Positions 8,491 through 49,258 of a stretch of DNA of 64,000 nt are shown here, piece by piece. This DNA is from an uncultured Acidobacteriota bacterium (GTDB lineage Bacteria > Acidobacteriota > Terriglobia > Terriglobales > Acidobacteriaceae). The translations under genes were made by a program, and so were the position numbers. The DNA lies in assembly GCA_963841655.1 (NCBI GenBank), contig CAWJDR010000003.1, positions 74,854 through 138,853 on the forward strand, written 5' to 3'. How positions within the stretch are numbered: the first letter of the stretch is position 1; the number at the start of each line of letters is the position of its first letter. A model generated the notes under the pieces. That model had not been told where the DNA came from. It was given only the letters and a program-made list of their open reading frames with translations, and made no database searches.

Positions 8491-9339
8491 TTGTCTTGGA
8501 AACACGGGAGAACTCACTTGAATTCATTCAATCGGCTGATTGCGGGCGTCCTATGCATACTCCTGTCACCGTTGCCGGCACTATGTGAACCGGCGGCAGG
8601 TGACTATGCCGGTCAGATCAATGCGCTTATCCCGGCAGCCACGCGCAATGCCAGGCCGACCAAGGTGAAGGATGATCTGCAATGGAACGACTTGTTGAAG
8701 ACGGAGAAGTCGGGCCGACTGAGAGCAGGACTCGCGGACGGATCGATTCTGAGTCTCGGGTCCAATAGTGAACTGAAGGTCGTCCAACACGATGCCACTT
8801 CCCAGCAAACATCTCTGGAGATGAATTTCGGGAAGGTTCGCAGCAAGGTAGTGAAGATTACGCAGCCCAATGGCAAGTTCGAAATGAAGACGCCTAACGC
8901 CGTGATTGGCGTTGTGGGCACTGATTTCTACGTGGGCTACGAACCCAATAGAACTACCGTGATCTGCTACACCGGTCAGGTCATGGTCACGCCGGCGGGC
9001 AATGCCAAGATCGTTCGGAACTCCGGGCAAAACAATGCGGACAATTCGATTGCCGTCAGCGCAGGTCAAATGGTGATTATCAGCACCGAGATTCCGCCGG
9101 CGGGTTTCCAATCGGATGCGACGCCCTCTGACGTCCTGAAATCGAGCATGATCGATACCGAAGTGCCGGATGGTCCGCCACCAGCTCTCCATCCGCACCT
9201 GGTGCGCAACCTGATTCTTGGGATTGGAGTCGCCGCGACAGGATGGGCCGTCGGCATTACGCAGCTGAATCAGCATGGTGGCGCGCCTGCAGCGCGGCCA
9301 ACCTGCCAGATCAATCCGCAGACCGGGAAATGCGGCTAA
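8491..9339 (+). CDS. FecR-domain protein (signal peptide, C-terminal TM)
   Basis: 282 aa. FecR-like beta-sandwich signature (GSILSLGSNSELKV ... VIGVVGTDFYV) and a C-terminal hydrophobic helix. Directly upstream of the CHASE2 cyclase. Confidence 0.7.
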   Translation: MSWKHGRTHLNSFNRLIAGVLCILLSPLPALCEPAAGDYAGQINALIPAATRNARPTKVKDDLQWNDLLKTEKSGRLRAGLADGSILSLGSNSELKVVQHDATSQQTSLEMNFGKVRSKVVKITQPNGKFEMKTPNAVIGVVGTDFYVGYEPNRTTVICYTGQVMVTPAGNAKIVRNSGQNNADNSIAVSAGQMVIISTEIPPAGFQSDATPSDVLKSSMIDTEVPDGPPPALHPHLVRNLILGIGVAATGWAVGITQLNQHGGAPAARPTCQINPQTGKCG

Positions 9340-9416: not shown

Positions 9417-11776
9417 ATGACTCAACATACCCAGCGGTGGTCGCAGCGGCTGAGCCGCCTATCAAGCCGCCAGGTCGATATTGCTCTTGCCATCATGGTG
9501 ACCGCGGCGGGTCTTCTGCTGTTTGCATTTGCGGGCATTGGTGGAAGCCGGCGCGCCGGTTTCCTTTTTCTCCAGAACGTCGAGCAACGCTTGCTCGACA
9601 TGCGATTCGGACTGCGCGGCCAACGGGCCGCATGATGACCGGATCGTGATCGTCGGTATTGACGAGAGGACACTCCAGAAGATTGGATCGTTCCCACTCC
9701 CTCGCAGCACCTACGCAACGCTCGTGCAACGACTGAGTGCAGGCGGAGCGCGAGTCGTTGCCTTCGATGCAACCTTCCCAACTCCCGAGAGCAACTCCGC
9801 AGCCAAGCCCTACAGAAGTTGCAAGCAGAATTGGGTGCGTCAGCGTCTCCCGCTGTTACGCATGACAATTCGGCAGCTTCAGGCGGCGAGTGATCAGGAT
9901 GCCTTGCTGGCCCACACATTGAAGGAATCGGGGAACGTGGTGCTCGGTCATCTGTTTCTCGATGCGGAGCGCGCCAAAGGCGCGGATCCAAAGCTGGAAG
10001 AAGAATATTTCAATATCGTGTGGGCCAAGGCCTTTCCGCAGGTACTCAAGGTCAAATCCAAAGACGGTCGCGACTTCGACCTAGGGAAGGCCTGGATCGA
10101 CAACGGCGGTACGGTGGCTGCCGGAGCGGAAGCCAACATCACTAAACTTGCCGAGGCGGCCGCATCATACGGGTTCATCGACATCAATCCCGATGCGGAC
10201 GGGACCCTGCGGCACGCGTTGCTGATCATGCGCTACCGGGACCAGGATTTTTTCCCTTCGCTGGCACTGCAAATCCTGCGCGAGTACGAACAGATTCCCG
10301 ATCAGCAAATTGCGGCGTACATCTCGGAAGACGGGCTCGAGCGAGTTCAGTTCGGAGGACATGAGCTCCATGCTTCCAGAGATGGCACCGCCATCATCAA
10401 CTACGTCGGTCCTTACGAGACTTATTCGCATTACTCGATGTGGGACGTCATGCGCGGCTCCGTTCCACCGGAGACGTTTAAGGACAAGATCGTCCTGGTG
10501 GGGGCCACTGCGAAGGCGATCGGAGATCTGCGCAACACGCCCTTCCAGGGTCGCGAAGCCTACATGGGCGTCGAGGTACACGCCAACATCCTCGACAACT
10601 TGCTTCACAGCGGAGAAAAGGGACGAGGCTTCTTGACCCGTGGAGCCCGTGAAGAGATGACGGATATCGGGTTCATCCTCTTATTTGGAATTGGTCTGGC
10701 TTGGTGGTTCGGCCGGGTCCGGCCGCTTTATTCGACTCTGTCGGTAGTGCTCTTGCTAGGCGGGTTCGGGTGGTTCGTATACTTCAGCTTTGCGCAGTGG
10801 GGGAGTTGGCTCAGTTTCACGATTCCGGCGGGTACGCTGGTGGCGAACTACGCGACGATTACCAGCTTCCGCATGATTTTCGAAGAACGCGAAAAACGGA
10901 AGATCCGAAAGACGTTCTCACAATACTTGTCGCCCGGCGTCATCGCACTGATTGAGAAAGATCCGCAGAAATACATCCGGCCAGGTGGTGAGACGAAAGA
11001 TCTGACCGTTATGTTCAGTGATATCCGTGATTTCACGACCTTGTCCGAAGGCCTGACCGCCGATGAACTCGTGCACCTGCTGAACGAATACCTGGGTGAG
11101 ATGACGGACGCGCTTTTCCGAAACCTTGGCACGCTCGACAAATACATCGGCGACGCCATCATGGCATTTTGGGGATCGCCTTATCCGCAAGACGATCACG
11201 CGCTGCGCGCTTGCGCATGTGCGCTGGAAATGGTTCGCTGCCTCGATATTTTGAATGCCAAATGGGAGGCAGAAGGGCGAAAACGCATTTCCATCGGGAT
11301 CGGGTTGAACACGGGTCCTGTGAATGTGGGCAACATGGGATCGTCGAAGCGGCTGGCTTGGACCGTCATGGGCGACAACGTGAACCTCGCCTCGCGACTG
11401 GAAGGCATGACCAAGCAATACCGCACCAGAATCATCATCAGCGAGGCCACGTATCGGCAGGTCGCCGACCATTTCGTTTGCCGCGATCTCGATAACATCC
11501 GCGTAAAGGGAAAGCTGCAGCCGGTGGGAATCTACGAAGTACTGGGCCCTGTGGAAGACCAGCTCAAAATATGAACCACTGCTGCAAGGTTTCAACGACG
11601 CAATGAGCGCATACCGCAGTCAGCGGTGGCAGGAGGCAGCAGGTAAATTTGGAGTTCTCCTGACCTCGTACCCCGACGACGGACCGACCCAGATTTTTCT
11701 GCAGCGAGCTCTGGATTTCATGGAAAAAGCGCCCGACCCCGATTGGGACGGCGTCTACGTGATGAAGACCAAGTAG
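9417..11776 (+). pseudogene. CHASE2-sensor class III adenylate/guanylate cyclase; two frameshifts as assembled
   Basis: The N-terminal TM plus LQNVEQRLLDMRFGLRGQR lies in the frame of ORF 9243..9635 (ATG 9417). The CHASE2 body, 3 TM helices and the cyclase domain (VMFSDIRDFTTLSE ... GDAIMAFWG ... GLNTGPVNVGNMGS) lie in ORF 9523..11574. The conserved tail YEPLLQGFNDAMSAYRSQRWQEAA...DWDGVYVMKTK continues in a third frame to the TAG at 11774-76. The shifts fall at GGG 9625-27 and AAAA 11566-69. Confidence 0.85.
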
Positions 11777-11783
11777 CCCCGAT

Positions 11784-13322
11784 TTACTTCTCGAAATTTC
11801 TCCAGTGGCGGCCGTCGTGTTCCAACAATGCGTCGGCTTCCTTGGGACCCCATGTGCCAGCGGCATAGTTCGGAAAGCTGCGTGGGGGCAGAGCCTTCCA
11901 GATATCCAGCATGGGGCTAACGATGCTCCACCCTGCCTCGACCATATCGGCGCGCTGAAACAAGGTAGCGTCACCCACCATGCAGTCGTGCAGGAGTCGT
12001 TCGTACCCGTGCTGGGCTGCTTTGCCGAAGTAGTCTGCGTATTCAAAATCCATGTCGACCGTTCCCAGCCGCATCACCGGCCCCGGAGTCTTCGCCGCGA
12101 AACGCAAAGAAATGCCCTCTTCTGGTTGGATATGGAGCACCAGTTGGTTTGGCATCAGATTCTCGACGCTGGTGTCGCGGAAAAGAACAAACGGTGCCTG
12201 CCGGAACTGAATAACAATGTGGGTGTTGCGTGCCGGGAAGCGCTTGCCAGTGCGGAGATAGAAGGGAACTCCAGCCCAGCGCCAATTGTCGATCTGCAAC
12301 TTCATAGCGACATAGGTTTCGGTGCGCGAGTCGGGAGGCACGCCTGGCTCGGACCGGTAGGCTGGGACGTGCTGCCCGAGGAATTCTCCTTCGCCATATT
12401 GCCCACGCACGGTACGGCTCAGGACTTCTTCCGAAGTCAGGGGCTGGATCGCGTGCAGGATCTTCGCCTGCTCGTCACGAACCGCGTCCGCCTGAAACGA
12501 TATGGGTGGCTCCATGGCGGTGAGGCTGATCAATTGCATGATGTGATTCGGGACCATGTCGCGGAGCGCTCCGGCATGGTCGTAGTATCCGCCACGCTGC
12601 TCGACGCCGACCGTTTCCGCTACTGAGATCTGGATGTGGTCGATGTAGCGACGATTCCAGATCGGTTCGAAGATCCCATTGGCAAAGCGGAAGGCCATGA
12701 TGTTCTGCACCGTCTCTTTGCCCAGGTAGTGATCAATCCGATAGATCTGCTGCTCATCGACGACCTTGAGCAGTTGTTTATTCAGAGCGCGCGCCGACTC
12801 GAGGTCACGGCCGAAAGGCTTTTCGACTATCACACGCCGCCAGTGATGGTTCTCCTCCGTCATCAGGCCAACGGCGTGCAGTTGTTCCACGACCGGGCCA
12901 AAGAAATCAGGTGCGATCGCAAGATAGTAGAAATAGTTGCCGTGCGTAGCGTGAGCGTCGTCCAGTTTCTGGAGCAGATCCTTTAATTGCAAGAAGGTGC
13001 GTTGATCCCCGAACTCACCGGTCAGGTAGTACATGCGGCGTTCGAACCACTCCTGTAGATCGGCGTCCAGTTCGACATCCGCAAACTGCTGCAGGTCCTG
13101 TTTGAGCTTGACTCGGAACTCCTCAGTCGTCATTGCGTCGTGTGCCACCCCTACGACAGCAAACTCACGGGATAGTAGATGGTGTTTTCCCAGGTTGTAG
13201 AGCGCAGGAATCAATTTCCGTCGGGTCAGATCCCCGGAAGCACCAAAGATCACCATAACGCAGGGATCTCCTGGACGGCCGATCCGTTCACCGTCCCCGT
13301 TAGCAGCGGCAGTTTGAGCCAT
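11784..13322 (-). CDS. zwf: glucose-6-phosphate dehydrogenase
   Basis: 512 aa. [20 protein letters not shown] and EKPFG motifs. Confidence 0.95.
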
Positions 13323-13491: not shown

Positions 13492-15684
13492 GTGCGGATT
13501 AGCCGGGGTGTGTCCCGATGGCGTCTCGCGCGAATTCCGGGCTGGGTGCAATGGTTGCCCGCATCCCTGTGCCTATTCGCGTCGGCAGTATCTGCGCAGG
13601 CGCCGGTGAGTACCCAAGGTTCACCTGAACGCCGGATTCCCGAACGAAGTGCCATAAGCACAGCCGCGCTCCAGGGCAAGGTTCGTGATCAGTGGGGACG
13701 GGCCGTGCCGGCTGTGGCGATAGAACTTCGCGGCAAATTGCAAACCTACACCGCCGTCACCAATGCTGAAGGAATCTTCCGCTTGCGAGACATCCGCCTT
13801 GGGGAATACGAACTTCAACTTGCACACGAGGGCTTCGAGTCTCGCGTTATGAAGGACCTAAAGGTCGAAAGAGCGGGCCTGATCGTGCTGGAGATCGACC
13901 TGCAATCATTGACCAACAGCTCTCCCGAGAGCGAAAGTCTCTCGGGCGTTCCTGGGTCGCCGCGAACCCTTCCCCAGCCAATCGTTTCGACTTCCCCGTA
14001 TCCCGGTATACGTAACCCTGTCACCGGCACCATCGCGGCCGAGGCTGCGAACGAAGCCGTTCCTGCCGCGTCGGATACCTTTGCATCTGCTTTTGATCGC
14101 TGGGAAATCGCGATACCGGAATGGAAGCGTTACGAGACTCAACCCGATGCTCCCTATGTAAAAGGGCACTGGTACGACCCGTTCAACCGGAACAAGCTCA
14201 AAGGAGACTATCCCGTCTTCGGACAGCGCTGGTTCTTTAATTTCACAGGCAGAAGCGAAACTCATTTTGGTGCCCGCCGCTTGCCGCTACCCAGTGGCCT
14301 TGACTCGGCCAATCCCGGCAGTAGCGCATTCTTTGGTCGGGGAGAGCAAGCGCTGGCGGCGGAAGACTTGCGTTTTTCGTTTGATCTGTTTCGCGGCGAT
14401 ACCGCCTTCCGCCCAGCAGATATACGATTCCGCTTCACGCCCGAGGTGAACCTGAATTTTCTGCAGGCTCGCGAGCGCGGCATCGTGAACATCGATCCGC
14501 GCAAGGGCACAGAGCGATTCGATACGCACGCAGGCGTGCAGGAAGCGTTCGTCGAGGCGAAGCTCCACGATCTTAGTCCCAACTACGATTTCGTCTCGAT
14601 TCGGGCTGGAATTCAGCAGTTCACCAGCGATTTCCGCGGGTTCCTCTTCTCGGAAGAGCAACCCGGAGTGCGGGTTTTCGGGAATTTAGGCTCTAACCGT
14701 TTCGCGTACAACCTGGCTTGGTTCTACTTCCTGGAGAAGAACACAAACAGCGGATTGAACACGTTTCAAAATCGTGGACAGCAAGTCTATGTGGCCAACG
14801 TTTATGTGCAGGACTTTCTGGCCAAGGGGTACACCACGGAGTTCAGTTTCCACCACAACCGCGATCACGGTGGTGTTCACTTCGACGACAATGGGTTTCT
14901 TGTGCGCCCGGCGCCGATTGGAGGCGTAGTCAACAGCACAATCAAAACTCACAACATTGAGGCCTACTACCTCGGGTGGGCGAGCAACGGCCACATTGGA
15001 CGTCTTAATGTGAGTCACGCCTTCTATCAAGCATTGGGACATGATGACTTCAACGCGATTGCGGGCCGGCGTGTCGACATCAACGCCCGCATGGCTGCGC
15101 TTGAGCTTTCTGTCGATAAGGACTGGGCGCGCTATCGAGCGTCAGTCTTCTACTCGTCGGGAGACTCGAGCAACCGTTCAGGAACATCCCGAACCGACGG
15201 CACAGCGCACGGATTCGACTCCATCGTAGACGATACACATTTTGCAGGAAGTGCTTTCAGTTTCTGGAACAGCGAGGGATTGCGGCTCACCGGAACTGGT
15301 ATTGCGCTGGTCAGTCCGGCGAGTCTTTTGCCGAGTCTGCGGGCGAATAAAGAGGAAGGCCAAGCCAATTTTGTAAATCCTGGTCTCATGCTGTTTAACA
15401 TCGGCGCGGACTTCAATCTCACTCCCAAACTGCGCACATTCGTCAACACGAACTATCTGCGATTTGACCGTACGGAGCCGCTGGAGTTGCTGCTGTTTCA
15501 GCGGCCAATTGACCACGGCATCGGCACAGATTTCGGAGCTGGTGCCGAGTACCGGCCTCCGCTGAGTGAAAACATTGTGATTCGCGGAGGAGCTTCCGCT
15601 TTGGTGCCCGGCCAGGGACTCAAGCAGATTTACAGTGGCCAGACTCTGTTTTCGTTGTTCGGCAACATTCGATTTCAGTTCTAG
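13492..15684 (+). CDS. outer-membrane beta-barrel protein with N-terminal carboxypeptidase-regulatory-like domain
   Basis: 730 aa. Signal peptide (..[10 protein letters not shown]), a CarboxypepD_reg-like stretch ([20 protein letters not shown]...[18 protein letters not shown]), a long alternating-strand region, and a C-terminal OMP signal ..FGNIRFQF. 20 nt upstream of the large cytochrome gene. Confidence 0.6.
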
Positions 15685-15704: not shown

Positions 15705-18700
15705 ATGAAGATTGCACACGCAAGGATAGCTTTGGTCCTGTTGACGGCGATCGTGGCCTCGCCGACATATCTGCGCGCGCAATCTGACGCAGCCGAGCCG
15801 AATGCACTTCTCTTGCAGTCGCAAGCCGATACCGATGAAAAGTCAGGCGGATGCCTAACCTGTCATACCGCTACTGACAGTCCAACGATGCACACGACCG
15901 GAACCGTGCGACTTGGCTGCACCGATTGTCACGGCGGCAACAGCGAAATTCGGGGGACCGGCAGTCCGAAGTCCCCGGAATACCTGCAAGCAAAAAAGCG
16001 AGCTCACCCCGAGGCGAGCATTTTGCGTTCGGACGAATCAGCGAATCCAGTGCGTGTCTCTACCGGCTGGTTGCGTGAGGACTGGAACTATGTTCGTTTT
16101 GTGAATCCAGGCGATCTTCGAGTGGCAGAAAGGACCTGCGGAGCTTCAGGGTGTCACATTGCCGAGGTTAGAAAAGTTCAAACCAGCATGATGACGCACG
16201 GTGCCATGCTCTGGGGCGCCGCCCTGTACAACAATGGTGCATTCCCCTTGAAGGATCCGCATTTCGGTGAAAGCTATGGTCCTGATGGCGTGCCGCAGCA
16301 GCTTATGACATTTCCAACTCCGACTGGAGAGGAGATCGAAAAGAAAGGCGTTCTGCCGCAGCTTGAGCCTTTGCAGCGGTGGGAAATTTCGCAACCTGGA
16401 AATGTGCTGCGAGTTTTCGAACGTGGAGGTCGAAAGCGTTCCGAGATAGGCAATCCCGATCCAGAAGAAGACCCCGGCAAGCCCGAGATCAAGCTGAGCG
16501 AACGGGGATTCGGAACCGAGTTGCGCACCGATCCTGTTTTTCTCGGCCTGCAGAAGACTCGCCTTCTCGATCCGCTCTTGTCGTTTCCAGGCACGAACGA
16601 TCAGGCCGGCGACTATCGTGCGAGCGGCTGTAGTGCCTGTCACGTTATATATGCAAATGACCGGTCCGCGGAGCATTCCGGCACCTCTGCGATGAACGGC
16701 AACCGCGGGCAAAGTGCATCCGAGGATCCAACCATTCCTCGTGACCAATCCGGGCATCCGATTCGCCACGAGTTCACGCGCTCGATTCCATCGAGTCAAT
16801 GCATTGTCTGCCACATCCACCCGGGCACCAACATGGTGGCTACTTATTTCGGGTACACCTGGTGGGATAACGAAATGGATGGCCAGCACATGTGGCCACC
16901 TCAGCAGCGTCGGGCGACCAGCGCTGAACAGAGTCAAGTGCAGGCCCGCAATCCGGAGCGCTCTGCCATTCGTGGCTTGTGGTCCGACGTTAAGTTTCTT
17001 GAAACGACGGGCACGCCCGAGTTTAACCGGCAACTCAACGATACCCAGTTTGCCGATTTTCACAGCCATGGCTGGATCTTCCGCGCAGTTTTTAAACACG
17101 ATCGCAAAGGCACGCTGCTGGACGCCCAAGATCGGCCTGTATCCCATGAGGATCCTGAGAAATTCGGCAGGGCAGTCCACCTCAAGGACATTCACCTCGA
17201 AAAGGGCATGCACTGCATCGATTGCCATTTCGAGCAGGACAATCATGGCAATGGGAAACTGTACGGAGAGACTCGCAATGCGATTGAGATCGATTGCGTC
17301 GATTGTCACGGCACGATCGAGCAACGAGCCACGCTGAGTACCTCGGGTCCAGCGGCCCCTACAGGTGGCACGAAACTGGCCGCACTTCGTACCCCGTGGA
17401 GAGAACGCCGTTTCTATTGGAGCGAAGGTCGTTTGTATCAGCGATCGATGCTCGACAAGGACAAGAAGTGGGAAGTCGTGCAAGTGCTGGACACGATCAC
17501 TCCGGGTAACGAGCACTACAGTGAAAAGTCACGACTGGCGAAGACAGTTCAGCAAGACGGTCAAACGTGGGGCGCGGCAGTCGATGAATCCAGATTGGCG
17601 CACCAAAACAGCCGAATGACCTGCTACGCCTGCCACTCGTCGTGGGCCCCTACCTGTTACGGATGCCATCTTTCGATGACTGCCAACCAGCGTACGCCGA
17701 TGCTGCACAACGAGGGCACGACGACGCGCAATTGGACTTCCTACAATTTCCAGATCCTTCGGGACGATATCTACACTCTCGGCATCGATGGAACCGTGAC
17801 TGGACATCGAGTGGCGCCTGTGCGATCGGCTTGTGCCGTACTCGTCAGTTCGCAGAACAATGATCGCGATTGGCTCTACTATCAGCAACAGACGATCTCG
17901 GCGGAAGGCTTCAGCGGGCAGGCGTTCTCGACGTTTGTGCCGCACACCGTGCGTGCCAAGGAAACCAAAGGATGCACGGATTGCCACGTGTCACGCGCGA
18001 ACGATAACAATGCGTGGATGGCGCAGTTGCTGTTGCAGGGTACCAACTTCATGAACTTCATGGGGCGTTACGTGTTTGTCGCGGACGGTAAAAGCGGGTT
18101 TGAGGCGGTAGCTGTTACCGAACACGACGAACCGCCGGTCGTGTTCGGCAGCGACTTCCAGAAGATCGCCTTTCCAGAAGACTTTAAGGCCCACGTTGAA
18201 CGCCGTCGCGAATTGAAACAGGCGTACGGTCATTCCGGTGCTGAAGTCCTCGATCTCCAGGCGCGCGGCGAGTATCTGTACGCAGCTACTGGAACAGGAG
18301 GATTGCGCATCTTCGATATCGCCAACATCGACAACAAAGATATTTCGGAACGCCTGGTGACCGCCCCCGTCTCACGGCTCGGCCAGCGCTTCTACCTTCC
18401 CACCAAGTACGCGACCGCCGTAGCAACACCAACGACTCTAGGGGTCGACCCATTGCGGACCCATCGCAAGGAGAACGAAGAGCAAGCCGTCCATCTGATG
18501 TACGGTTTTCTTTACGTTGCTGACAAGTACGAAGGTCTCGTGATCGTCGGAGATCCTAATCTGAAGAGCAAGAGTCCCGGAGTGGGCACTCTCCTTGACG
18601 GGAATCCTGCGAACAATTTTCTAAAGCGGGCGTTGGCGTTCAACCCTGAGGGGAAGTTAAACGGAGCACGCCGGATCACGATCGCAGGCACGTACGCGTA

Positions 18701-19442
18701 TGTGCTGTGCGATGTCGGTCTGGTGGTTGTTGACCTCGAAAACCCGCTCCAGCCCAAAATCACGTCCGAAATCGGAAATCCAGTACTGAATGCTCCGCGC
18801 GGGATCGCGGTGCAGTTTCGGTATGCGTTCGTGGTAGATCGCGAAGGCCTGAAGGTTCTCGATGTAACTCGTCTGGACCAACCACGAGTTGTATCCGGTG
18901 CAACTGTGCCTGTGGACGACGCTCGCAACATTTATGTTGCGCGTACGTACGCATATGTCGCGGCCGGGAAGGATGGCGTGGCGATCGTCGATGTAGAGCG
19001 GCCGGAGAATCCCAAGCTTGACCAGGTGTTCAATGCGGATGGCCAGGTGAACGACGCCTATGATGTCAAGCTGGGCATGGTCAGTTCGAGCCTCTTCGCT
19101 TATGTCGCAGATGGAAAGCATGGTCTGCGGGTTGTGCAATTGTTCTCGCCCGTCGACAACCCGGCCTTTAGTGGTTTTAGTCCCAGGCCAACTCCGAAGT
19201 TGATTGCCAGCTACCGCACGCGCGGCCCTGCCCTTGCAGTTTCGAAGGGCATCGATCGGGATCGCGCCGTGGACGAAAGCGGGAATCAGCTAGCGGTTTT
19301 CGGGCGCCGTGGAGCTCGTCCGTTCAATCGGCAGGAAATGGAACGCATGTTCCTTCGGGATAGTGAGTTGTATACGGTGACTGACGATCCGCCGAATGCG
19401 CCAGTTGCTGATGCTAAGCCGACCTCTGCGAATTCTCACTGA
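15705..19442 (+). CDS. multihaem c-type cytochrome fused to a C-terminal LVIVD-repeat beta-propeller
   Basis: 1245 aa with a signal peptide. 9 CxxCH motifs (CLTCH, CTDCH, CSACH, CIVCH, CIDCH, CVDCH, CYACH, CYGCH, CTDCH) plus one CGASGCH. About 6 LVIVD-type repeats ([74 protein letters not shown]) lie roughly at nt 18270-19160. Confidence 0.8.
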
Positions 19443-19457: not shown

Positions 19458-20814
19458 TCACTGTGGGCCAAGGTGCGCTATGCCGCGAAGTTCAGGAATA
19501 CTGAAGTGCCCTTTCGTCCGCTTCGCCTGGCTCCAATCATGATATTGGTGGCACTCGAAGCACCGGCCTTCGGCAACTTCTCTTGATGAACTGGCTTCCC
19601 GATGGCACTGGCGGCAGGTCTCGATCCCAGGCAGCAGAATGTCGGATGTATCGTGGCTTTCCATGGTGCGAACGTGGCAGGCGGTACAGGACATCATGCG
19701 ATGGGCGCGATGATCAAATTCGGCATGTCGTAGCCACCGGGGCGCGATGTTCGCCGGTGCGACCTCCGGAAGAGTCCCAGCGACGGAATCGAGAACGTGG
19801 CACTGCCGGCAGGTCTTGGTCCATAGCAACCATTCCGCATCCTCGGTGCGAAACTGCACCCACTCTGTGGCGTTCCGGGCGACGCGCGGGGCGCGTGCGT
19901 CCTCAGGTAATTGCCGGTTAGGCGGTTCTGCCTCATGAATCACCGCCGGATGAGCCGCTAGATATTCCTCAAATCGCTTCTTCAAAAACAGGTGGACCAC
20001 TTGGGGCTTATCATGTGGCACCTGCTCGCTGCCGAAATGCCTGTCGAATTGCAGCAAATGGCACGCTGCACAGTGGCTTGTGAAGCGAATGGGGACCATG
20101 TACGCCCCGACCTGCACTTTGTTGTCCCGCTCACTACTCTGCGTGAGCGGGTCCGTACGAACCGTGGCCGCATATGGCCAGGTGCCGGAGTCCTCTGACC
20201 GATGGCAATCGTCGCAAGACAACTGCACCCGCGTATGGTCAGGACCGATGAGGTTCGGTTGCAGGTGCAGGTAGTGGTTCAGCCGGATCTTGCCGTGGTC
20301 GATCTGTGCCTCCAATCAGCGCCGAGAATTCCGGATGACTGCGGTCGAAGCTGGAGATTGCAGACGCAAAATGCGGTTGTCCATCCCGAGTCTGCAGATG
20401 CGAATGGCATTGCGTACAACTAGCCACGCTAGCCGCCGACAAGCGCACGTCACCTCGATGCTCCGTGTGGCAGGAGGAGCAATGAGGCGTGAAACGCTGA
20501 TTGGCACGGTGTACCGGGCCGTCGTGACAGGTGAGACACGCCTCGTCGCTTACTTCCTTGAAGAACGTTCCGGTCCGAGTCAGATGGCAGAGGCCGCACT
20601 GCTGCGTAAAGACAGCGTGAGCTTGGGCGAGGGGGCCGCTTGAGTATGCCTTCTGACCTCCTTGGACTTGTTGGGTTAGCAGCCACCCGAGGGCAAGAAC
20701 GGGGACTGTCAACGACAACCAGAAACGCCAGCGGCGAAATGGGTGCGGACGCGCGAAGTACTGCAGGTCAATGCGTCGAGCGAGCTTTTTGGTAGTGCGC
20801 GTCCTTCGCAGCAT
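19458..20814 (-). pseudogene. membrane-anchored multihaem cytochrome c (about 10 CxxCH; c3/NapC-like style); one frameshift as assembled, or two overlapping genes
   Basis: ORF 20239..20814 has an N-terminal TM (WRFWLSLTVPVLALGWLL) and 4 CxxCH. ORF 19458..20315 has 6 CxxCH and starts on TTG. The two overlap by 77 nt. The text reads through as ..SHPEFSAL / LEAQIDHGKIRLNH.. at about 20300-20320. Confidence 0.7.
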
Positions 20815-20823
20815 CGCTTTGTC

Positions 20824-21744
20824 TCAGAACCTCAGGGCCACCACTGCATGCCACACGCCCAGGACTAGCACGGCGTAAGACAGGGGAATGTGTACCAGCA
20901 GCCAGCCGTGTAGCAATTTGTGAAGGCGATTCTGTTTGTCCAGTTGGCGTTTTTCGTCACAGATGTTTTCCAGATCGTCGATACTGGCATGCAATGCTGG
21001 TGGGAACAGAACCCGCAATTGCCGGAACATCGCCCGCGCCAAGGAAGGATTGCCCAGCCTCGCTCTGCTTGGGCCTGTCTTACCAAGGTAGGGTTGAACT
21101 TCGACCAGCAGGAATCGCCGCAACTCGCTACTCGCTTGCTCGTCCGCCTGAAGGCCGGAGGCAACCGTTACGTCCCAATTTGCTCCTGCGGATGCAGCCA
21201 TGGCTCGCTGTTGAGCACTCGCACCCGAAACTTCTCCTTCCAGCGCCGCGCAGGATTCTTCCACCAGTCGTGAGGCTTCTTCCGCCAGTTGGCTCCGCAC
21301 CCGATCGATCTGCTCGTAGATTGTCTCCATCGGAAGCTGGGCGGTTTGCAATCGCGGCATGAAATGCTGCAGGGCGGCGCCAAGGAGTCCGCTGAAAAAT
21401 ACAAAGATGAACAGCCACATCAGGACTCGAGTCAGTGAGCCACCAAAGTGAAATCCGCCATGCAACAGGATCAGGGGAAAGCTCACCAATCCGAGCCAGA
21501 GGTGGGCGCGCATCCACGTCTGTGCGCGCCCCACACGCCAGACAGGAAATTTCTTGCGAAGACCCAGCAGGCCGGCGAAGAGCATGAATGCGAAGCCGAC
21601 GCTGCCGTAGACAAGCCCGAGCGCGCTACCTCCGCGTGCACCCTGTGGGGACTGGAAGGTATAAGGGACATAGGCTGCCGTCGCAATCGCCAGCCCAACC
21701 GCGGTCCCGACAAACCATTTGCGATGGGTGTGATCGATCAGCAA
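20824..21744 (-). CDS. 5-TM membrane protein with paired His (candidate di-haem b-type transmembrane electron carrier)
   Basis: 306 aa. Four N-terminal TM helices, a cytoplasmic helical region of about 150 aa, and one C-terminal TM helix. His81/His95 and His285/His299 are each 14 residues apart within predicted helices. I recognise no named family. Confidence 0.5.
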   Translation of the reverse strand: MLIDHTHRKWFVGTAVGLAIATAAYVPYTFQSPQGARGGSALGLVYGSVGFAFMLFAGLLGLRKKFPVWRVGRAQTWMRAHLWLGLVSFPLILLHGGFHFGGSLTRVLMWLFIFVFFSGLLGAALQHFMPRLQTAQLPMETIYEQIDRVRSQLAEEASRLVEESCAALEGEVSGASAQQRAMAASAGANWDVTVASGLQADEQASSELRRFLLVEVQPYLGKTGPSRARLGNPSLARAMFRQLRVLFPPALHASIDDLENICDEKRQLDKQNRLHKLLHGWLLVHIPLSYAVLVLGVWHAVVALRF

Positions 21745-21749
21745 TGGAT

Positions 21750-23912
21750 CTATCCCTCGAGTGGGCCGGACTGCTTGAGTAGTCCGGCGAAAAATTCGGG
21801 CGGATTCACTCGATGCGCGGCATCATGTGGACAGGCATAGACGCAGCTGGGCTCGGCATGGTCATGACACAAATCACAAGAGGTAGCTTTGACGCGCACG
21901 CTGGCTACTTTCCGGCCCGGATGGGCTGGATCGTCTAGTTCGACAGGAAACGGGTGCAGGTTAATATTGCCGTAAGGACAGTTGTTGGCGCACAGGCCGC
22001 AGCCGATACACCAGTCCTCGATGATGACTTCGAGGGAATTCCGGCGGCGGATAGAACCGACCGGACATCCAACCATGCACAGCGGATCGCGACACTGCCG
22101 GCAGGAGGTGGCTACCAGGTATTTGTCGAAGCGAAGTCCCTCGCGCACCAGTCGGCTGACACCATCATGCGCGTCGGCACAGGCTCGAACACACTGATCA
22201 CAACGGGTACACCGTTCCAGATCGAGGACCAGCAGGCTTTGCGCCTCCATCAGGCCGTTCGCTAGAAACTGGTCGACCGGCAGGTTTTGCACCTGAGTTA
22301 CGCGACGCCGGTTCTCTTCCAAACGCTCCCGGGCGATGGCTTCCAAACGACTACGAATATCCGGAAAGCGCTCCAGCATGAGTCCGAAGTCTTCGCGGGA
22401 AATGCGGACAGCCTCGACGTGATCGAGAGCCGTACAAGTTGCGGTGCGCGGGCTGCCACTGAGGAGGGCAATCTCTCCGAAGTAGCCGCCCCGCGCGAGA
22501 TAAGCCAGGACAAGTTCGCCGCCAGGACGCTCCTCGGACACCTTCACGAAGCCAATCCGCACCAGGTAGAAGCTGTCGGCCGCCTCTCCTTGGCGACAAA
22601 TCACCTGGCCGGGGTTGAAGCGCAGCAACTCCACCCGGTCACGGAGGTGATCAATGAAGTCCTTCGTGAGAGAGGAGAAGATGGGCACGCTGCGCAGATG
22701 CGAGTCGAGAGCGCGTGTGCGGTAGTTACGCTCCAGTTGGGCGCGGAAGGTTTTGTTGCGCTGAAGGATATCGAGGACGTTGCGGAGCATTTCAAGCATC
22801 ACGCAATCGGTCCGTGCGCGCACCGTCGCGGAGCGCGGGTAGTAGCTCATGCAGGTCATTTCGCCGAACAACTCGCCCGGCCCCAGTTCAGCGATCGGAT
22901 TGTCATAGGGCAAGTCGACCGTCGCGTCGATTGGAATGAACGGCCGATCGCCTTCCTCATGGCGCTGGTGCCGCTCTCGCGGGCTGAGGATGCTTTTCAG
23001 CCTCTTGAAAAAGCCTTTGCTGCTGCCCTCAGTTCTGACGTGCGCCATCGGGCTGGAGAGAAAGACCTCTGCTTTTCCCTCGAGGATGTAAAACGCAGTC
23101 GAACCAAACTCGCCCTCACGGCAAATCATCTCGCCCGCACGGTAGTGCCGTTTCACCACTGCTTTTTGATTCAGTTCCAGAAATGTGCCGGAAACGTTCT
23201 GGAAGATAGGCAGGTGCAATAATTCAGAGGGATCGAGAACATCTCCGATTCCCAATTCTGTCCCCACTACGCGCTTGTTCGTCAGAGCTCCCGTCGGACA
23301 GGAAACCATACACTCACCGCAGGAGACGCAGGACGACTCTCCCATGGGCAGATTTGTGTCGAAGGCCACACCCGCCTGGTATCCCTTGCCGCGGCGTGCC
23401 AACACCCAGTTGTTCCGAATGTCATCACAGCCCCGGATACAGCGATCGCACAGAATGCAGGATTCGTGGTCGACCGCGATGACAGCCGAAGAATCGTCTT
23501 TTCCGCGTGGGGTCATGCGGCGCGGGAAGCGTGGCTGATCAATGCGGGCGGCAGTTGCCAGGCGTTCCAGTTCGCAGTCTCCGGAATGCTGTTGACGCGC
23601 GCACGGGGCAGGGTGATCGGACATCAACAGTTCGATCAGCGTGTGGCGCGCTGCCTGGACCTGTTCGGTCGAGGTCTTCACGGTCATGCCTGGTTCCACT
23701 TGCCGAATACACGACGCTGCATACACGCGCTGGCCGACATCGACGACACAAACGCGGCAGACGCCCACCGGGTTTTCATTCTGCTGGTGGCAAAGCGTAG
23801 GGATCGCGATGCCATGGGTGCGAGCAGCATCGAAAATCGTCGTGCCGGCAGGAACCGACACGGGTGTTTCATCGATGGTCAATTGGACCGTGGGCGGCGG
23901 TGCGGAACTCAT
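21750..23912 (-). CDS. Fe-S protein: NuoG/HoxU-like N-terminus + 2 cyclic-nucleotide-binding domains + DmsB/NrfC-like 4x[4Fe-4S] C-terminus
   Basis: 720 aa with no signal peptide. 2Fe-2S fold (CHQQNENPVGVCRVCVVDV), CILCDRCIRGC and CVSCGECMVSCP clusters. Two CNB domains with phosphate-binding cassettes (LFGEMTCMSYYPRSATVRA; YFGEIALLSGSPRTATCTA). The C-terminus has CTRCDQCVRAC, CRQCRDPLCMVGCP, CIGCGLCANNCP and CDLCHDHAEPSCVYACP. 4-nt overlap with nuoEF. Confidence 0.8.
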   Translation of the reverse strand: MSSAPPPTVQLTIDETPVSVPAGTTIFDAARTHGIAIPTLCHQQNENPVGVCRVCVVDVGQRVYAASCIRQVEPGMTVKTSTEQVQAARHTLIELLMSDHPAPCARQQHSGDCELERLATAARIDQPRFPRRMTPRGKDDSSAVIAVDHESCILCDRCIRGCDDIRNNWVLARRGKGYQAGVAFDTNLPMGESSCVSCGECMVSCPTGALTNKRVVGTELGIGDVLDPSELLHLPIFQNVSGTFLELNQKAVVKRHYRAGEMICREGEFGSTAFYILEGKAEVFLSSPMAHVRTEGSSKGFFKRLKSILSPRERHQRHEEGDRPFIPIDATVDLPYDNPIAELGPGELFGEMTCMSYYPRSATVRARTDCVMLEMLRNVLDILQRNKTFRAQLERNYRTRALDSHLRSVPIFSSLTKDFIDHLRDRVELLRFNPGQVICRQGEAADSFYLVRIGFVKVSEERPGGELVLAYLARGGYFGEIALLSGSPRTATCTALDHVEAVRISREDFGLMLERFPDIRSRLEAIARERLEENRRRVTQVQNLPVDQFLANGLMEAQSLLVLDLERCTRCDQCVRACADAHDGVSRLVREGLRFDKYLVATSCRQCRDPLCMVGCPVGSIRRRNSLEVIIEDWCIGCGLCANNCPYGNINLHPFPVELDDPAHPGRKVASVRVKATSCDLCHDHAEPSCVYACPHDAAHRVNPPEFFAGLLKQSGPLEG

Positions 23913-25582
23913 GCCGTCCCTCTATTGGAGAAGCAGACTCCCGCCGAGCAGTGGTGACGAGATAGATGTTCCTCTACGACGTCGGGGAAGTGCTTTAGCA
24001 CGGAAGCAATCGGCACTGGAACCACTTGTCCGAGCCCGCAAATGGAAGTTAACTTCATAGCCGAGGAAAGCTCGTCGAGAAGCTGACGATCGGTTTGCGA
24101 AGATCGACCTTCCGTCCATCCCGTCAACATTTCGACCATTTTTTGCGAACCCATGCGACAGGGGACACATTTCCCGCAAGATTCGTTCCGGTAGAAGCGC
24201 ACAGCGTTGAGCGCCATGTCGAGCATGCACCGGCCTTCGGCAACAACCACGATCGCGCCCGAGCCCACCATGGAACCGGCGGCGGCTACAGCATTCCAGT
24301 CGAGCGCAAGATCCGCCATCGAAGCAGGGAGATATCCGGACGAGGGGCCAGAGGGTGCATAAGCCAGAAGCCTTCGATTGTCCAAAACCCCACCGGCAAG
24401 CTCGTAGATGAGTTCGGAGTACTTGGTTCCCATGGGGACTTCGAAGACGCCAGGCGAGTTCACATCCCCACTGACCCCCACGAACTTCATGCCAACTGAG
24501 CCGTTTTTGCCTTGCGCCTTGAACCAGTCGGCACCTCGCGCGAGGATCGCTGTGGCAAACGTGAATGTTTCGACGTTATTGATTGCGGTCGGCTGATTCC
24601 ATAGGCCATTCGTGCCCGGGAACGGAGGCTTGTTGCGGGGTTCGGCTCGCTTGCCTTCAATTGCTTCCAGCAGCGCACTCTCTTCGCCGCAAATGTAACC
24701 TCCCGGGCTGACGAAGATCTCTAGATCAAACGACAAGTCACTCCCGAGGATGCGTTTGCCAAGCAGTCCCGACTCGTAGCAATGCTCGATTTCCTTCTGC
24801 AAAACCTTCTTGGGTTCTTCGTACTCGTGTCGGATATATAGAATTCCTTGCTGCGCTCCGGTGACGAGCCCAGCAGTGATCATGCCCTCGATCACCAGGT
24901 GAGGGACTGTCTCCATGATGAAGCGATCCTTGATGGTGCCCGGTTCACTCTCGTCTGCATTGCAGACGATGTACTTCGCCTTACCCGGCGCGTTGCGGAC
25001 GATTTCCCACTTGTTGCCGGTCGGAAACCCGGCGCCTCCCATACCTCGCAAACCGCTTGCCTTGAGAGTCGCGATGATCCCGCTCCAATCCCGCGTTTCC
25101 ACGAACCGGCGGACGACAGAGTAGTTCGACGATCCGTTGTAGGGATCCGAACTGACCCGCGCCTGCGGGTTGTCCAGCGGCGCCAGAGGGAGTGGGCGAC
25201 GAGAGAGAGCATCACGAACCAGTCTGATCGCATTGGACCTATCCAAATTGCAGAAGATGCGGTCGTTCACAGAAAGCGCGGGCGCCTGATCGCAGCGACC
25301 GAGGCAGGAGACGTCTCGGATCGACGCGTCTTCGGAGCCCTCTCCCCGGAAAGCCTGCTTGAGCTCTGCTTTGAGTTCGGGACCACCGCGCAGGTGACAG
25401 CTCATGTCCGCACAGACCTTCACTTCAGCCGCGGGAGGTGGCGTTAAGTGAAAATGCGGATAGAAGCTGGCTACCGTGTGGATCTGACTGACGGGAACGT
25501 TGATTTGCGCAGCGAGCTGCTGCAACTGTTCGGCCGGCAAATAACCAAACTGCTGCTGGATCGCCCTGAGTTGGTCAAACAA
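23909..25582 (-). CDS. NuoE-NuoF fusion flavoprotein (NAD(P)H-binding, FMN, 2Fe-2S + 4Fe-4S)
   Basis: 557 aa. NuoE-like N-terminus (FGYLPAEQLQQLAAQINVPVSQIHTVASFY, CADMSCHLRG, CLGRCDQAP). NuoF core (GLRGMGGAGFPTGNKW, ADESEPGT, ESCGKCVPCRMG). Confidence 0.9.
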   Translation of the reverse strand: MFDQLRAIQQQFGYLPAEQLQQLAAQINVPVSQIHTVASFYPHFHLTPPPAAEVKVCADMSCHLRGGPELKAELKQAFRGEGSEDASIRDVSCLGRCDQAPALSVNDRIFCNLDRSNAIRLVRDALSRRPLPLAPLDNPQARVSSDPYNGSSNYSVVRRFVETRDWSGIIATLKASGLRGMGGAGFPTGNKWEIVRNAPGKAKYIVCNADESEPGTIKDRFIMETVPHLVIEGMITAGLVTGAQQGILYIRHEYEEPKKVLQKEIEHCYESGLLGKRILGSDLSFDLEIFVSPGGYICGEESALLEAIEGKRAEPRNKPPFPGTNGLWNQPTAINNVETFTFATAILARGADWFKAQGKNGSVGMKFVGVSGDVNSPGVFEVPMGTKYSELIYELAGGVLDNRRLLAYAPSGPSSGYLPASMADLALDWNAVAAAGSMVGSGAIVVVAEGRCMLDMALNAVRFYRNESCGKCVPCRMGSQKMVEMLTGWTEGRSSQTDRQLLDELSSAMKLTSICGLGQVVPVPIASVLKHFPDVVEEHLSRHHCSAGVCFSNRGTA

Positions 25583-25814: not shown

Positions 25815-27147
25815 ATGGGCAAGACACCGAACCCGGCGTGGCAAGTAGTGGTGTGCCTCGCTTTTGCGACGGTGGTCGCTGCCCAAAACAGTTCGGCGGG
25901 CAAGTACAACGGTCCGGGCGGATGCGCCAGTAGCAGTTGTCACGGGAGCATCCAGCCCAAGCAGATCACGCGCGTTGCGCAGAACGAATACAGCATCTGG
26001 GCCGGGCAAGATAAGCATGCGCGTGCCTACCAGGTGCTCTCCAATCCGGTCTCCATACGGATCGGCAAGATTCTCAACATCGGCCGGCCTGATCAAGCGC
26101 AGAAATGTCTTGCCTGCCACGCACTATCGGTCCCCGCCGAGCAACGCGCCGAATCGTTCGAACTGATTGACGGCGTGAGTTGTGAGAGCTGCCACGGGCC
26201 CGCCTCAGGATGGCTCGGTCCGCACACAACCCGTGATTGGCCGCACGAGAAGTCTGTTCAGCTGGGAATGTACGATACCCGCGACCTGATCAAGCGCAGC
26301 GAGCGCTGCTTGAGTTGCCATCTAGGTACGGCGGAAAAGTTTGTCGATCACCAAATGATTGCCGCCGGACACCCCGACCTGACCTTCGAACTCAATCTCT
26401 TCAGTGCGGTGATGCCTCGTCATTGGAAGCAACCTCCAGATGACGCCTGGCGCGGGGTGCAGGAGTGGGGAATCGGCGAGGCGGTGCAACTGCAGAAGGG
26501 GTTGGAGCGTTTAGCGCGGCGGGCCAGCAGTTCGACGTGGCCGGAATACGGCGAACTCGATTGTTTTGCCTGCCATCACAGTCTGACGAAGCCGGAAGAT
26601 AGCTGGCGACAAGAACTCGGCTACTCGGGACGCAAGCCCGGCGTGCCTGCTTGGAATGGGTCCCGCTATGTGGTATTTCGTCATCTGGTGCAGAAAGATA
26701 AATGCTGATGTGGCGATCCAGTTGGACGCCGACATGGTGAAGCTTGCCAGCCTGCTCGGCCAGCCGAACGCGAACCCGCAGGATATTGCCGCTACTGCGA
26801 CCCGAGGGGCAGGATTCGCCGGCCAGATTTCGCGGCAACTCAGTGCGAAGACCTATGACCAGTCATTCACACTTGGCTTAATGCGGGCTATTGTGCAGGA
26901 TGGCGAATCTATTTCGGGGCAGGGACAACGCGCTGCCGAGCAAGCTGCAATGTCTCTGGACTCCCTCTTCGTGGCCTACAAGCAAAATGCGAAGGCAGAG
27001 AACGAATCTGAAATTCGGGAATCGATTAACGGGCTCTTCCAGCAACTGGACAACCCTTCCGCGTACAACGCTCCCCGTTTCGCCGCACAGATGCAGAAGG
27101 TGAGCTCTGTTTTGTCACGCGTCGGCCGGGAGAAGGCGAGCCAGTGA
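25815..27147 (+). pseudogene. periplasmic multihaem cytochrome c (c554-like style, 4 CxxCH + 1 CX4CH) with helical C-terminal domain; one frameshift as assembled
   Basis: Start taken at MGKTPNPAWQVVVCLAFATVVAAQ (signal peptide) inside ORF 25608..26708. Motifs CASSSCH, CLACH, CESCH, CLSCH, CFACH. The reading continues ..RHLVQK / INADVAIQLD.. into ORF 26656..27147, with the shift at AAA 26694-96. Confidence 0.7.
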
Positions 27148-46892: not shown

Positions 46893-46901
46893 GTCACGGC
46901 T

Positions 46902-48318: not shown

Positions 48319-48327
48319 GAGCCAAGT

Positions 48328-49065: not shown

Positions 49066-49258
49066 GAGACCGGTGTGAACAGTCGCACGAAGGCGACTTC
49101 CGCAAGTCATCATTGGTGTTTTTGTTATTTGTGTTTTTCAATCGACGTGTCCCCCGTCTGACGCCTTCCCGCGTTGCTCACCTAAACAGTTAAGTTCGAG
49201 TGCCGCCCCAAAAGAGACCAGCCCGCATCGCCTATGGCACACTGATGCTGGAGGCGGA

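Follow-up and report, generated by a model that had tools for sequence, protein, structure and literature searches.

The stretch of DNA analysed here, called the window throughout, comprises 64,000 nucleotides (nt) from an uncultured Acidobacteriota bacterium (GCA_963841655.1, contig CAWJDR010000003.1, positions 74,854-138,853 of the forward strand). At positions 19458-25582 it carries an operon of four tightly packed minus-strand genes encoding a NuoE-NuoF fusion, an iron-sulfur (Fe-S) protein of 720 amino acids (aa), a 306-aa membrane protein and a membrane-anchored decahaem cytochrome c. It is proposed, with moderate confidence, that the four products form an inner-membrane complex which links the cytoplasmic NAD(P)H pool to the periplasm-facing, anchored decahaem. 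The genes and domains of the operon, with the evidence used to assign them, are as follows.

23909-25582, minus strand: NuoE-NuoF fusion, 557 aa, entry module for NAD(P)H with flavin mononucleotide (FMN) (Pfam, NCBIfam, PDB relatives)
21750-23912, minus strand: 720-aa Fe-S protein with cyclic-nucleotide-binding (cNMP) domains (open reading frame (ORF), Pfam, NCBIfam)
23268-23891, minus strand: HoxU/NuoG-like N-terminal domain of the 720-aa protein, aa 8-215, with [2Fe-2S] and 4Fe-4S motifs (NCBIfam, PDB)
22308-23225, minus strand: two cyclic-nucleotide-binding domains of the 720-aa protein, approximately aa 230-535 (Pfam, PDB matches, cassettes)
21798-22235, minus strand: C-terminal part of the 720-aa protein, aa 560-705, whose four Cys groups recall the four-cluster ferredoxins of HydN/DmsB type (NCBIfam, Cys pattern)
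20824-21744, minus strand: 306-aa membrane protein, similar to PtdF and to the PCC3/PCC4 inner-membrane proteins (IMPs) (AlphaFold2 (AF2) model, conserved motifs)
19458-20814, minus strand: membrane-anchored decahaem cytochrome c, PtdG-like (translation with repair, orthologues)

The fusion gene overlaps the gene of the 720-aa protein by 4 nt, the latter is separated from the membrane protein gene by a 5-nt gap, and a 9-nt gap precedes the cytochrome gene. The sequence-only reading of this DNA, which had described four co-directional genes with overlaps or gaps of 10 nt or less and no signal peptide on the first two products, is confirmed on both counts. The four genes are translationally coupled. 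A sequence scan gave no convincing promoter or terminator inside the operon, nothing rising above background, and in the divergent intergenic region no promoter, terminator or inverted repeat was found above background either.

In the fusion, residues 4-123 form a NuoE-like, thioredoxin-like [2Fe-2S] domain and residues 142-544 a NuoF-like part with the FMN/NADH site and an N3-type [4Fe-4S] cluster. The FMN/NADH and Fe-S motifs that had been recognised by eye are borne out by Pfam (2Fe-2S_thioredx 1e-27, Complex1_51K 1e-40, SLBB and NADH_4Fe-4S 4e-27) as well as by NCBIfam (nuoF_fam 1e-131). The closest PDB relatives are HydB, HoxF and FoDH1-beta, the beta subunit of a tungsten formate dehydrogenase. 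The alignment to HydB (7q4v_B) reaches only to residue 538 of 599, so that the fusion lacks the additional ferredoxin domain at the C-terminus of the bifurcating HydB.

The 720-aa product had been described as a poly-Fe-S protein; Pfam and NCBIfam confirm the Fe-S motifs, but two cNMP-binding domains had been overlooked. The N-terminal domain is recognised by the NCBIfam models for HoxU (5e-50) and for the N-terminus of FeFe hydrogenase A6 (2e-61), and its PDB relatives are the N-termini of FdsA, HydA and NuoG, the match being restricted to the first 215 residues. The His-ligated cluster motif of this domain (window 23560-23650, aa 89-117) has the spacing H-x3-C-x8-C, whereas NuoG and HoxU have H-x3-C-x2-C-x5-C. 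HPxPC-x8-C is conserved and the middle Cys is replaced by ARQ in all acidobacterial orthologues matching the pattern; judged from these alignments, the cluster may be lost or differently ligated. The cNMP-binding domains sit between the HoxU/NuoG-like N-terminus and the four-cluster ferredoxin C-terminus. They match Pfam cNMP_binding in three stretches (2.3e-40), carry canonical phosphate-binding cassettes at aa 349 (FGE..RSA) and aa 478 (FGE..RTA), and have the regulatory domains of PKA and PKG among their PDB matches. Two canonical cassettes are present in 63 of the 81 orthologues. The C-terminal Cys groups lie at aa 568, 604, 635 and 679, and the NCBIfam matches of this part are HydN (1e-16), DmsB (1e-13) and FDH3-beta (1e-11). 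Through this ferredoxin domain the 720-aa protein would dock on the membrane protein and deliver electrons to it.

For the 306-aa membrane protein, 46 diverse homologues (35-60% identical) were used in building the AF2 model, which has a predicted local distance difference test score (pLDDT) of 92.8. It shows five transmembrane (TM) helices, and between TM4 and TM5 some 140 residues fold into a helical bundle. W77, H81, H95, G119, G122, Q126, P130, Q271, W281 and H285 are invariant in all 46 homologues, and H299 is present in 45, the remaining sequence stopping short of this position. These residues make up a WX3HX13H motif on TM3 (W77-H81-H95) and again on TM5 (W281-H285-H299), together with SGXXG on TM4 (S/T118-G119-x-x-G122). 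Hence, the 5-TM protein with two His pairs spaced by 14 residues (H81/H95 and H285/H299) stands as it was first described, and its His ligands are conserved. The successive loops hold on average 2.2, 0.4, 5.2 and 0.7 lysine plus arginine residues, which indicates an N-in topology with the helical bundle in the cytoplasm. This topology places H81/H285 near the cytoplasmic face and H95/H299 near the periplasmic face, and we infer that the two His pairs are candidate bis-His ligands of two stacked b haems.

No Pfam or NCBIfam family matches the membrane protein above threshold. Ferric_reduct (PF01794) reaches 18.8 bits, below its gathering threshold of 28 bits, and covers TM2-TM3 only; 11 of the 46 homologues match this family at E < 0.01 (best 3.6e-4). 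Further weak matches are to DUF4405 and, in some homologues (4/46), to Ni_hydr_CYTB, and all three are haem-b membrane families. A close homologue is labelled by NCBI as 'ferric reductase-like transmembrane domain-containing protein'. A Foldseek search of the model against the PDB returned nothing significant, the best hit being the helical bundle of the TorS sensor (E = 0.077), with no NOX or STEAP match, and a profile search of the PDB gave no relative. The protein is thus placed outside the known quinol-dehydrogenase families, in line with the sequence-only reading. Many homologues are longer, with 500-880 aa (P0146, P0153, P0217 and others), and carry an insertion after residue 170, in the cytoplasmic helical region; a Pfam scan of ten of these long homologues, with inserts of 200-500 aa, found no fused domain.

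The decahaem gene is present in the window as two ORFs of 191 and 285 aa in different frames. Alignment with three related loci (L001, L002 and L003) locates a single extra base at 20307 which splits the gene; L002, a metagenomic sequence 98.6% identical to the window, and L003 are without it. Deletion of this base gives a 451-aa protein with a basic cytoplasmic N-terminal tail, one TM helix as signal anchor and ten CxxCH motifs. An intact single ORF with exactly 10 CxxCH is found in 77 of 83 orthologues. The TM-anchored cytochrome with about ten CxxCH that had been described is therefore recovered after repair, the gene being split in the window as it stands. Two separate cytochrome genes were considered and rejected, because the second ORF has no export signal and the orthologues are single ORFs. 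A quinol dehydrogenase of NapC/NirT type was also rejected, as Pfam detected no domain of NapC/NirT/CymA type in the decahaem.

The insertion at 20307 is not the only one. Further 1-nt insertions occur near 26690 and at 30486, and a 2-nt insertion at 27223; they are found neither in the 98.6%-identical relative nor in a more distant one. Three of the insertions split conserved genes, namely those of the decahaem, of a cytochrome c554-like protein encoded divergently from the operon and of a TrkA-type K+ channel (30486). Because several insertions unique to the window split otherwise conserved genes, they are probably indel errors of the assembly rather than signs of gene decay.

Conservation of the four genes

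Close homologues of the membrane protein number more than 3100, and it matches, at E <= 0.001, 2442 of the clusters formed at 50% identity. A species scan with one genome per species gave 80 loci, all from metagenome-assembled genomes of Acidobacteriota (Terriglobales, Acidoferrales and related lineages). In all 80 loci the genes for NuoEF, the Fe-S/cNMP protein, the membrane protein and the decahaem follow each other in this order wherever the contig reaches, at membrane-protein identities down to 47%, and the NuoE-NuoF fusion is found in every related locus with enough upstream DNA. A metagenome scan, which mostly recovered the same NuoEF-bearing clade, added about 45 soil and peat contigs with the same four genes; a tblastn search against plasmids gave no match. 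The four genes thus co-occur in other genomes, and since their order is kept in all the species loci in spite of this divergence and they recur in the metagenome loci, the arrangement is far beyond chance.

Beyond this clade, six lineages with membrane proteins 35-40% identical to that of the window were sampled (loci L084-L091). All six keep a trio consisting of a cNMP-binding four-cluster Fe-S protein (540-1165 aa), a membrane protein with the same motifs and a TM-anchored cytochrome with 9-10 haems, the last having the same architecture as the decahaem with 9-10 CxxCH. The cNMP-binding domains are kept in all the distant homologues sampled. NuoEF and the HoxU-like domain are absent in the sampled distant loci with the trio, and the minimal Fe-S proteins (540-559 aa) align over their whole length to residues 213-720 of the 720-aa protein with 42-50% identity. 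This distribution indicates that the acidobacterial clade has gained NuoEF and the HoxU-like domain as an additional input module. Like a Rosetta stone, the acidobacterial fusion points to NAD(P)H as the partner of the core on the cytoplasmic side.

Some loci depart from the common arrangement. In L105 (6115-8988), a 957-aa protein ending in an HbpS-like domain replaces the cNMP/Fe-S protein directly upstream of the membrane protein. In the distant locus L086 (551-2200), a gene for a cNMP-binding Ser/Thr kinase adjoins the module, and in L089 (265-2601) one gene encodes the cNMP part (548 aa) and another the ferredoxin part (173 aa).

Proposed electron route and rival explanations

The four-subunit complex proposed here is based on gene content, domains, conserved ligands, predicted topology and co-occurrence, and from these we infer cofactor binding, complex formation, direction of flow, independence of quinone and gating by cyclic nucleotides. 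The sequence-only reading had suggested that NuoEF is connected, by way of a dihaem membrane protein, with a multihaem cytochrome outside the cytoplasm. This is partly supported, as it fits the domains, the topology, the His pairs, the four-gene co-occurrence and the lack of any alternative catalytic partner among the scanned window ORFs. The scan covered non-overlapping ORFs of at least 220 aa, the main exception being the end-truncated ORF 2-1228. In these ORFs, and in the gene tables of the relatives up to 10 kb from the operon, there is no gene for a hydrogenase, a formate dehydrogenase, a molybdopterin protein or NuoH/L/M/N, as had been stated before.

In the proposed mechanism, NAD(P)H would be oxidised at the FMN of the fusion and electrons would move over the HoxU-like clusters of the 720-aa protein to its four-cluster ferredoxin domain, which would dock on the cytoplasmic helical bundle of the membrane protein. 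The transmembrane step would proceed over a haem b at H81/H285 and then a haem b at H95/H299. The decahaem would take up the electrons and pass them to the c554-like cytochrome, a multihaem protein with LVIVD repeats and a putative outer-membrane barrel encoded beside the operon, and the system would serve as a sink that delivers electrons to Fe(III), humics or other acceptors outside the cytoplasm. The outer-membrane part of this path is weakly supported, the model of the barrel being poor.

Net flow is most likely outward, because NADH is a strong reductant and the membrane potential, negative inside, aids the export of electrons; this is our reading from established bioenergetics. Such export dissipates the membrane potential, and the likely role would therefore be that of a regulated electron sink under acceptor limitation and not of a coupling site. 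Further, the position of the cNMP domains, always between two Fe-S modules, suggests second-messenger or allosteric control of the flow. As a tentative extension, which we consider rather improbable in this specific form, binding of cyclic AMP (cAMP) or cyclic GMP (cGMP) would reposition the NADH-side Fe-S module with respect to the ferredoxin module and so switch on a quinone-independent current from NAD(P)H to the extracytoplasmic haems.

A number of points weigh against the proposed complex. Neither a solved structure nor a curated family corresponds to the membrane protein, which leaves the motif to carry the case for haem binding. One Cys of the His-ligated cluster motif in the 720-aa protein is missing, and the continuity of the Fe-S chain across the cNMP domains would be a weak point. 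This copy of the decahaem could be non-functional if the insertion at 20307 is real. As the export of electrons dissipates the membrane potential, the physiological benefit is itself conjectural. Moreover, a quinone site has been proposed for the PCC3/4 inner-membrane proteins by He et al. (PMC5566968). Full-text searches of the literature found no functional study and no biochemical, expression or genetic data.

The last-mentioned quinone site leads to the alternative that survives best, a coupling through the quinone pool, to which we give a small but appreciable chance. Here the membrane protein would be a dihaem cytochrome b that reacts with quinone, comparable to NarI, FdnI or the cytochrome b of hydrogenases, and NuoEF with the Fe-S protein would be a non-pumping NADH:quinone oxidoreductase; quinol would reduce the decahaem at the same subunit and the quinone pool would be obligatory. 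A four-cluster ferredoxin on a dihaem b subunit is the NarHI/FdnHI design, the weak Ni_hydr_CYTB matches of 4 of the 46 membrane-protein homologues point in the same direction, and the IMPs for which quinone activity was suggested by He et al. have the same signature (PMC5566968). On the other hand, the membrane protein shows no significant similarity to the families or structures of quinone-reactive cytochromes b, the decahaem does not belong to the NapC/NirT/CymA type, and the trio is always found together with the cytochrome gene directly downstream.

Inward flow is unlikely. In that case periplasmic or extracellular donors such as Fe(II), reduced humics or cytochromes reduced by H2 or formate would deliver electrons to NAD(P)+, comparable to Hmc/Tmc or to the 'uphill' branch of iron oxidisers. 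The closest PDB relatives include NAD-reducing hydrogenases and formate dehydrogenases, in which diaphorases of HoxFU/FdsB type work reversibly; the signature of the membrane protein was first described in Fe(II) oxidisers (PMC5566968), and relatives occur in lineages named Acidoferrum and Acidiferrales. However, by our reasoning from established bioenergetics such a flow works against the membrane potential and, with NAD+ (-320 mV) lying far below Fe(II) or humic donors, it would be doubly uphill; no periplasmic hydrogenase or formate dehydrogenase lies nearby among the scanned window ORFs, and the NuoF part is without the extra clusters of bifurcating enzymes.

A signalling role, in which the haem/Fe-S chain would report the periplasmic or extracellular redox state to the cytoplasm or integrate it with cNMP levels with no bulk current, is likewise unlikely: the cNMP-binding domains of the invariant core, the cNMP-binding kinase gene adjoining the module in L086 and a CHASE2 cyclase near the operon in the window are consistent with it, but none of the four proteins bears an output domain (kinase, DNA-binding or cyclase), and a full FMN/NADH site, about 7 to 9 Fe-S clusters and 12 haems would be costly for a sensor.

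Two known enzyme classes were considered as candidates and rejected. The operon is not a part of complex I, as neither the Q-module (NuoBCDI) nor the membrane arm (NuoAHJKLMN) is encoded among the scanned window ORFs or in the flanks of the relatives. It is also not a Hox, Fds or bifurcating HydABC enzyme, since there is no catalytic partner among these ORFs and the NuoF part has no extra clusters.

To our knowledge, the quinone pool is the point of departure from the inner membrane in all bacterial routes to extracellular acceptors that have been studied well (CymA, ImcH, CbcL, Ndh2/EetAB). If the proposed complex is correct, electrons would enter at another point, by direct transfer from NAD(P)H across the membrane to a multihaem cytochrome, and the complex would be a modular bacterial analogue of the NOX and ferric reductases. 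The module occurs widely, and its NuoEF-bearing version is common in the Acidobacteriota of soil and peat, which are abundant and whose anaerobic redox metabolism is poorly understood. Gating by cyclic nucleotides, if true, would be the first direct allosteric nucleotide control of a transmembrane respiratory conduit, and a wire gated in this way would offer soil Acidobacteriota a major, so far unrecognised way of discharging electrons onto iron or humics.

Flanking genes and the rest of the window

Three flanking genes on the plus strand encode the candidate extracytoplasmic partners named above.

25815-27147, plus strand: c554-like periplasmic cytochrome, divergent to the operon, 443 aa after repair, with signal peptide (Pfam, PDB)
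15705-19442, plus strand: secreted multihaem protein, 1245 aa, convergent to the operon, with C-terminal LVIVD beta-propeller repeats (Pfam, NCBIfam)
13492-15684, plus strand: 730-aa secreted protein with a CarboxypepD_reg domain, probable beta-barrel (Pfam, signal peptide, AF2)

Both multihaem genes that had been noted beside the operon (15705-19442 and 25815-27147) do exist, the divergent one being split by the 1-nt insertion near 26690. The c554-like cytochrome has 4 CxxCH and 1 CxxxxCH motifs and matches Pfam Cytochrome_C554 (3e-12) and, in the PDB, cytochrome c554 (6e-5); a homologue is present in most loci, the distant ones included. The LVIVD protein has 9 CxxCH and 1 CxxxxCH, with matches to Pfam LVIVD (6e-20) and, below the cutoff, to the NCBIfam ExtM-like model (3e-23). 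Its gene adjoins the operon in most acidobacterial loci and also in L088 and L089, and it is a candidate for an outer component. The c554-like, LVIVD multihaem and barrel-like genes are kept in most of the species and metagenome loci, and the distant trio is often accompanied by c554-like and LVIVD cytochromes.

The outer-membrane barrel gene of the sequence-only reading is weakly supported. Its product has a signal peptide, a CarboxypepD_reg domain (Pfam, 7.5e-11) and a C-terminal ...RFQF with a final Phe, and AF2 predicts long beta strands, but the pLDDT of 40 is too poor for a fold search. The barrel-like gene is co-located with the LVIVD gene in many loci, and the product of 13492-15684 may partner the LVIVD cytochrome in the outer membrane.

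At 9523-11574 (plus strand), some 8 kb away from the operon, lies a gene for an adenylate/guanylate cyclase fused to a CHASE2 sensor; a gene with a FecR domain at 8491-9339 (plus strand) precedes it. The cyclase is a possible source of the cNMP ligand. A homologue occurs in the flanks of 7 of 171 loci, short flanks limiting the view, and the linkage to the operon is not kept beyond close relatives. Two HbpS-like (PF03928) ORFs at 6766-8305 (minus strand), the first of which has a lipoprotein-like signal, may represent a single frameshifted gene; in about 20 other loci HbpS-like genes lie near the operon as well, though not always in the same place. Glucose-6-phosphate dehydrogenase, a producer of NADPH, is encoded at 11784-13322 (minus strand) between the barrel gene and the cyclase gene. 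This synteny is found only in closer relatives (17 loci) and, being confined to them, is probably inherited and not functional. The remaining window is housekeeping, with an assimilatory sulfate-reduction cluster at 45189-50095 (sulfite reductase haemoprotein, uroporphyrin methylase, PAPS reductase and TauE exporter) and, elsewhere, genes for histidine and threonine biosynthesis.

Comparison with known systems

The operon had been taken as a system that is not characterised. It is indeed uncharacterised, but its core has already been named ptdEFG (bioRxiv 10.1101/2023.11.21.568154) and the signature of its membrane protein has been described (PMC5566968). No description of the NuoEF-bearing version was found in full-text searches.

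The marine ptdABCDEFG operon was named in the preprint of Elbon, Stewart and Glass, where its function is stated to be 'completely unknown' (bioRxiv 10.1101/2023.11.21.568154). There, PtdA is a pentahaem protein with a beta-sandwich, assigned to the NrfA COG, PtdB a porin, PtdC a cytoplasmic FAD/NAD(P) oxidoreductase (FAD, flavin adenine dinucleotide) and PtdD a periplasmic tetrahaem; PtdE is a cNMP-binding protein with 4Fe-4S clusters, PtdF a ferric-reductase-like protein of the cytoplasmic membrane and PtdG a decahaem (bioRxiv 10.1101/2023.11.21.568154). Sulfidibacter corallicola, Tistlia consotensis and Roseibium aggregatum are among the carriers of ptd clusters listed there. The core trio has the same order as in the acidobacterial operon, the match being one of architecture and motifs only. 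The 720-aa protein resembles PtdE in its cNMP_binding match and its four C-terminal Cys groups, again by architecture only; the 5-TM protein with weak Ferric_reduct matches, encoded next to the PtdE-like gene, resembles PtdF, and the cytochrome, with 10 CxxCH once the inserted base is removed, resembles PtdG. Further multihaem cytochromes accompany both trios; that of ptd is also associated with a porin, beside which the acidobacterial locus has the poorly modelled barrel candidate, and with a cytoplasmic NAD(P)-binding oxidoreductase. There are differences as well. Within 10 kb on either side of the acidobacterial trio there is no PtdC-like FAD/NAD(P) oxidoreductase, the NuoE-NuoF fusion and the HoxU-like domain being found instead, and no tetrahaem PtdD-like gene was seen at the locus. 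The neighbouring cytochrome with five motifs resembles cytochrome c554 and not the NrfA family, and an LVIVD multihaem protein is part of the acidobacterial locus. Moreover, the acidobacterial habitat is soil and peat, whereas the ptd examples in the gene-neighbourhood figure of the preprint are all saline. As compared by domains and gene content, the acidobacterial operon is a variant of an uncharacterised ptdEFG-type core to which an NADH diaphorase of HoxFU/NuoEFG type is attached. The presence of a different NAD(P)-binding flavoprotein beside the same trio in marine ptd gives independent support for the NAD(P)H link.

From Fe(II) oxidisers, He et al. (2017) described the IMPs of PCC3/PCC4 clusters as proteins of about 300 aa with 5 TM helices, WX3HX13H on TM3 and TM5 and SGXXG on TM4, and proposed that they are dihaem b, quinone-active relays across the inner membrane (PMC5566968). 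The genes adjoin those for a porin and for giant multihaem cytochromes of the periplasm or the cell exterior, the PCC3 cytochromes having medians of 21 and 34 haems (PMC5566968). The 306-aa protein agrees with this description in size and number of TM helices and has exactly this motif signature, as far as motifs and architecture are compared. Those clusters, on the other hand, are without a cytoplasmic Fe-S, cNMP or NuoEF partner, and their cytochromes have 21-85 haems in comparison to the 5 and 10 motifs of the neighbouring cytochromes in the window. Quinone coupling and Fe(II) oxidation were proposed for them, in contrast to the route suggested here.

The electron logic of the proposed route is the same as in the NOX/FRE/STEAP enzymes and in MsrQ-Fre, where electrons pass from NAD(P)H to a flavin, to two bis-His b haems and to an extracytoplasmic acceptor without quinone. 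The His pairs on TM3 and TM5, spaced by 13-14 residues, are also shared. These enzymes use an FNR-like FAD domain, whereas the acidobacterial system has a multi-cluster chain of NuoEF, HoxU and ferredoxin. Further, it has 5 TM helices as against 6, its Ferric_reduct match is sub-threshold and its acceptor is a multihaem cytochrome c.

HoxFU, FdsBG with the N-terminus of FdsA, and the N-module of NuoEFG are clear homologues of the fusion and the HoxU-like domain. Here, however, the scanned window ORFs include no hydrogenase, formate dehydrogenase, Q-module or antiporter-like subunit, and the output would be to the ferredoxin domain and the dihaem membrane protein. In Hmc and Tmc of sulfate reducers and in NarGHI/FdnGHI, a membrane cytochrome b connects Fe-S proteins in the cytoplasm with a quinone site or with a cytochrome c of the periplasm, and the docking of a four-cluster ferredoxin on a dihaem b subunit is common to them and the proposed complex. 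They differ in that the acidobacterial operon has no HdrD-like CCG domain, no NrfD-like subunit and no NarI similarity, while it has NAD(P)H as redox partner and cNMP domains. The acidobacterial fusion would be the first sequence-based clue to the cytoplasmic redox partner of the modules of ptdEFG and PCC3-IMP type, whose function now becomes testable.

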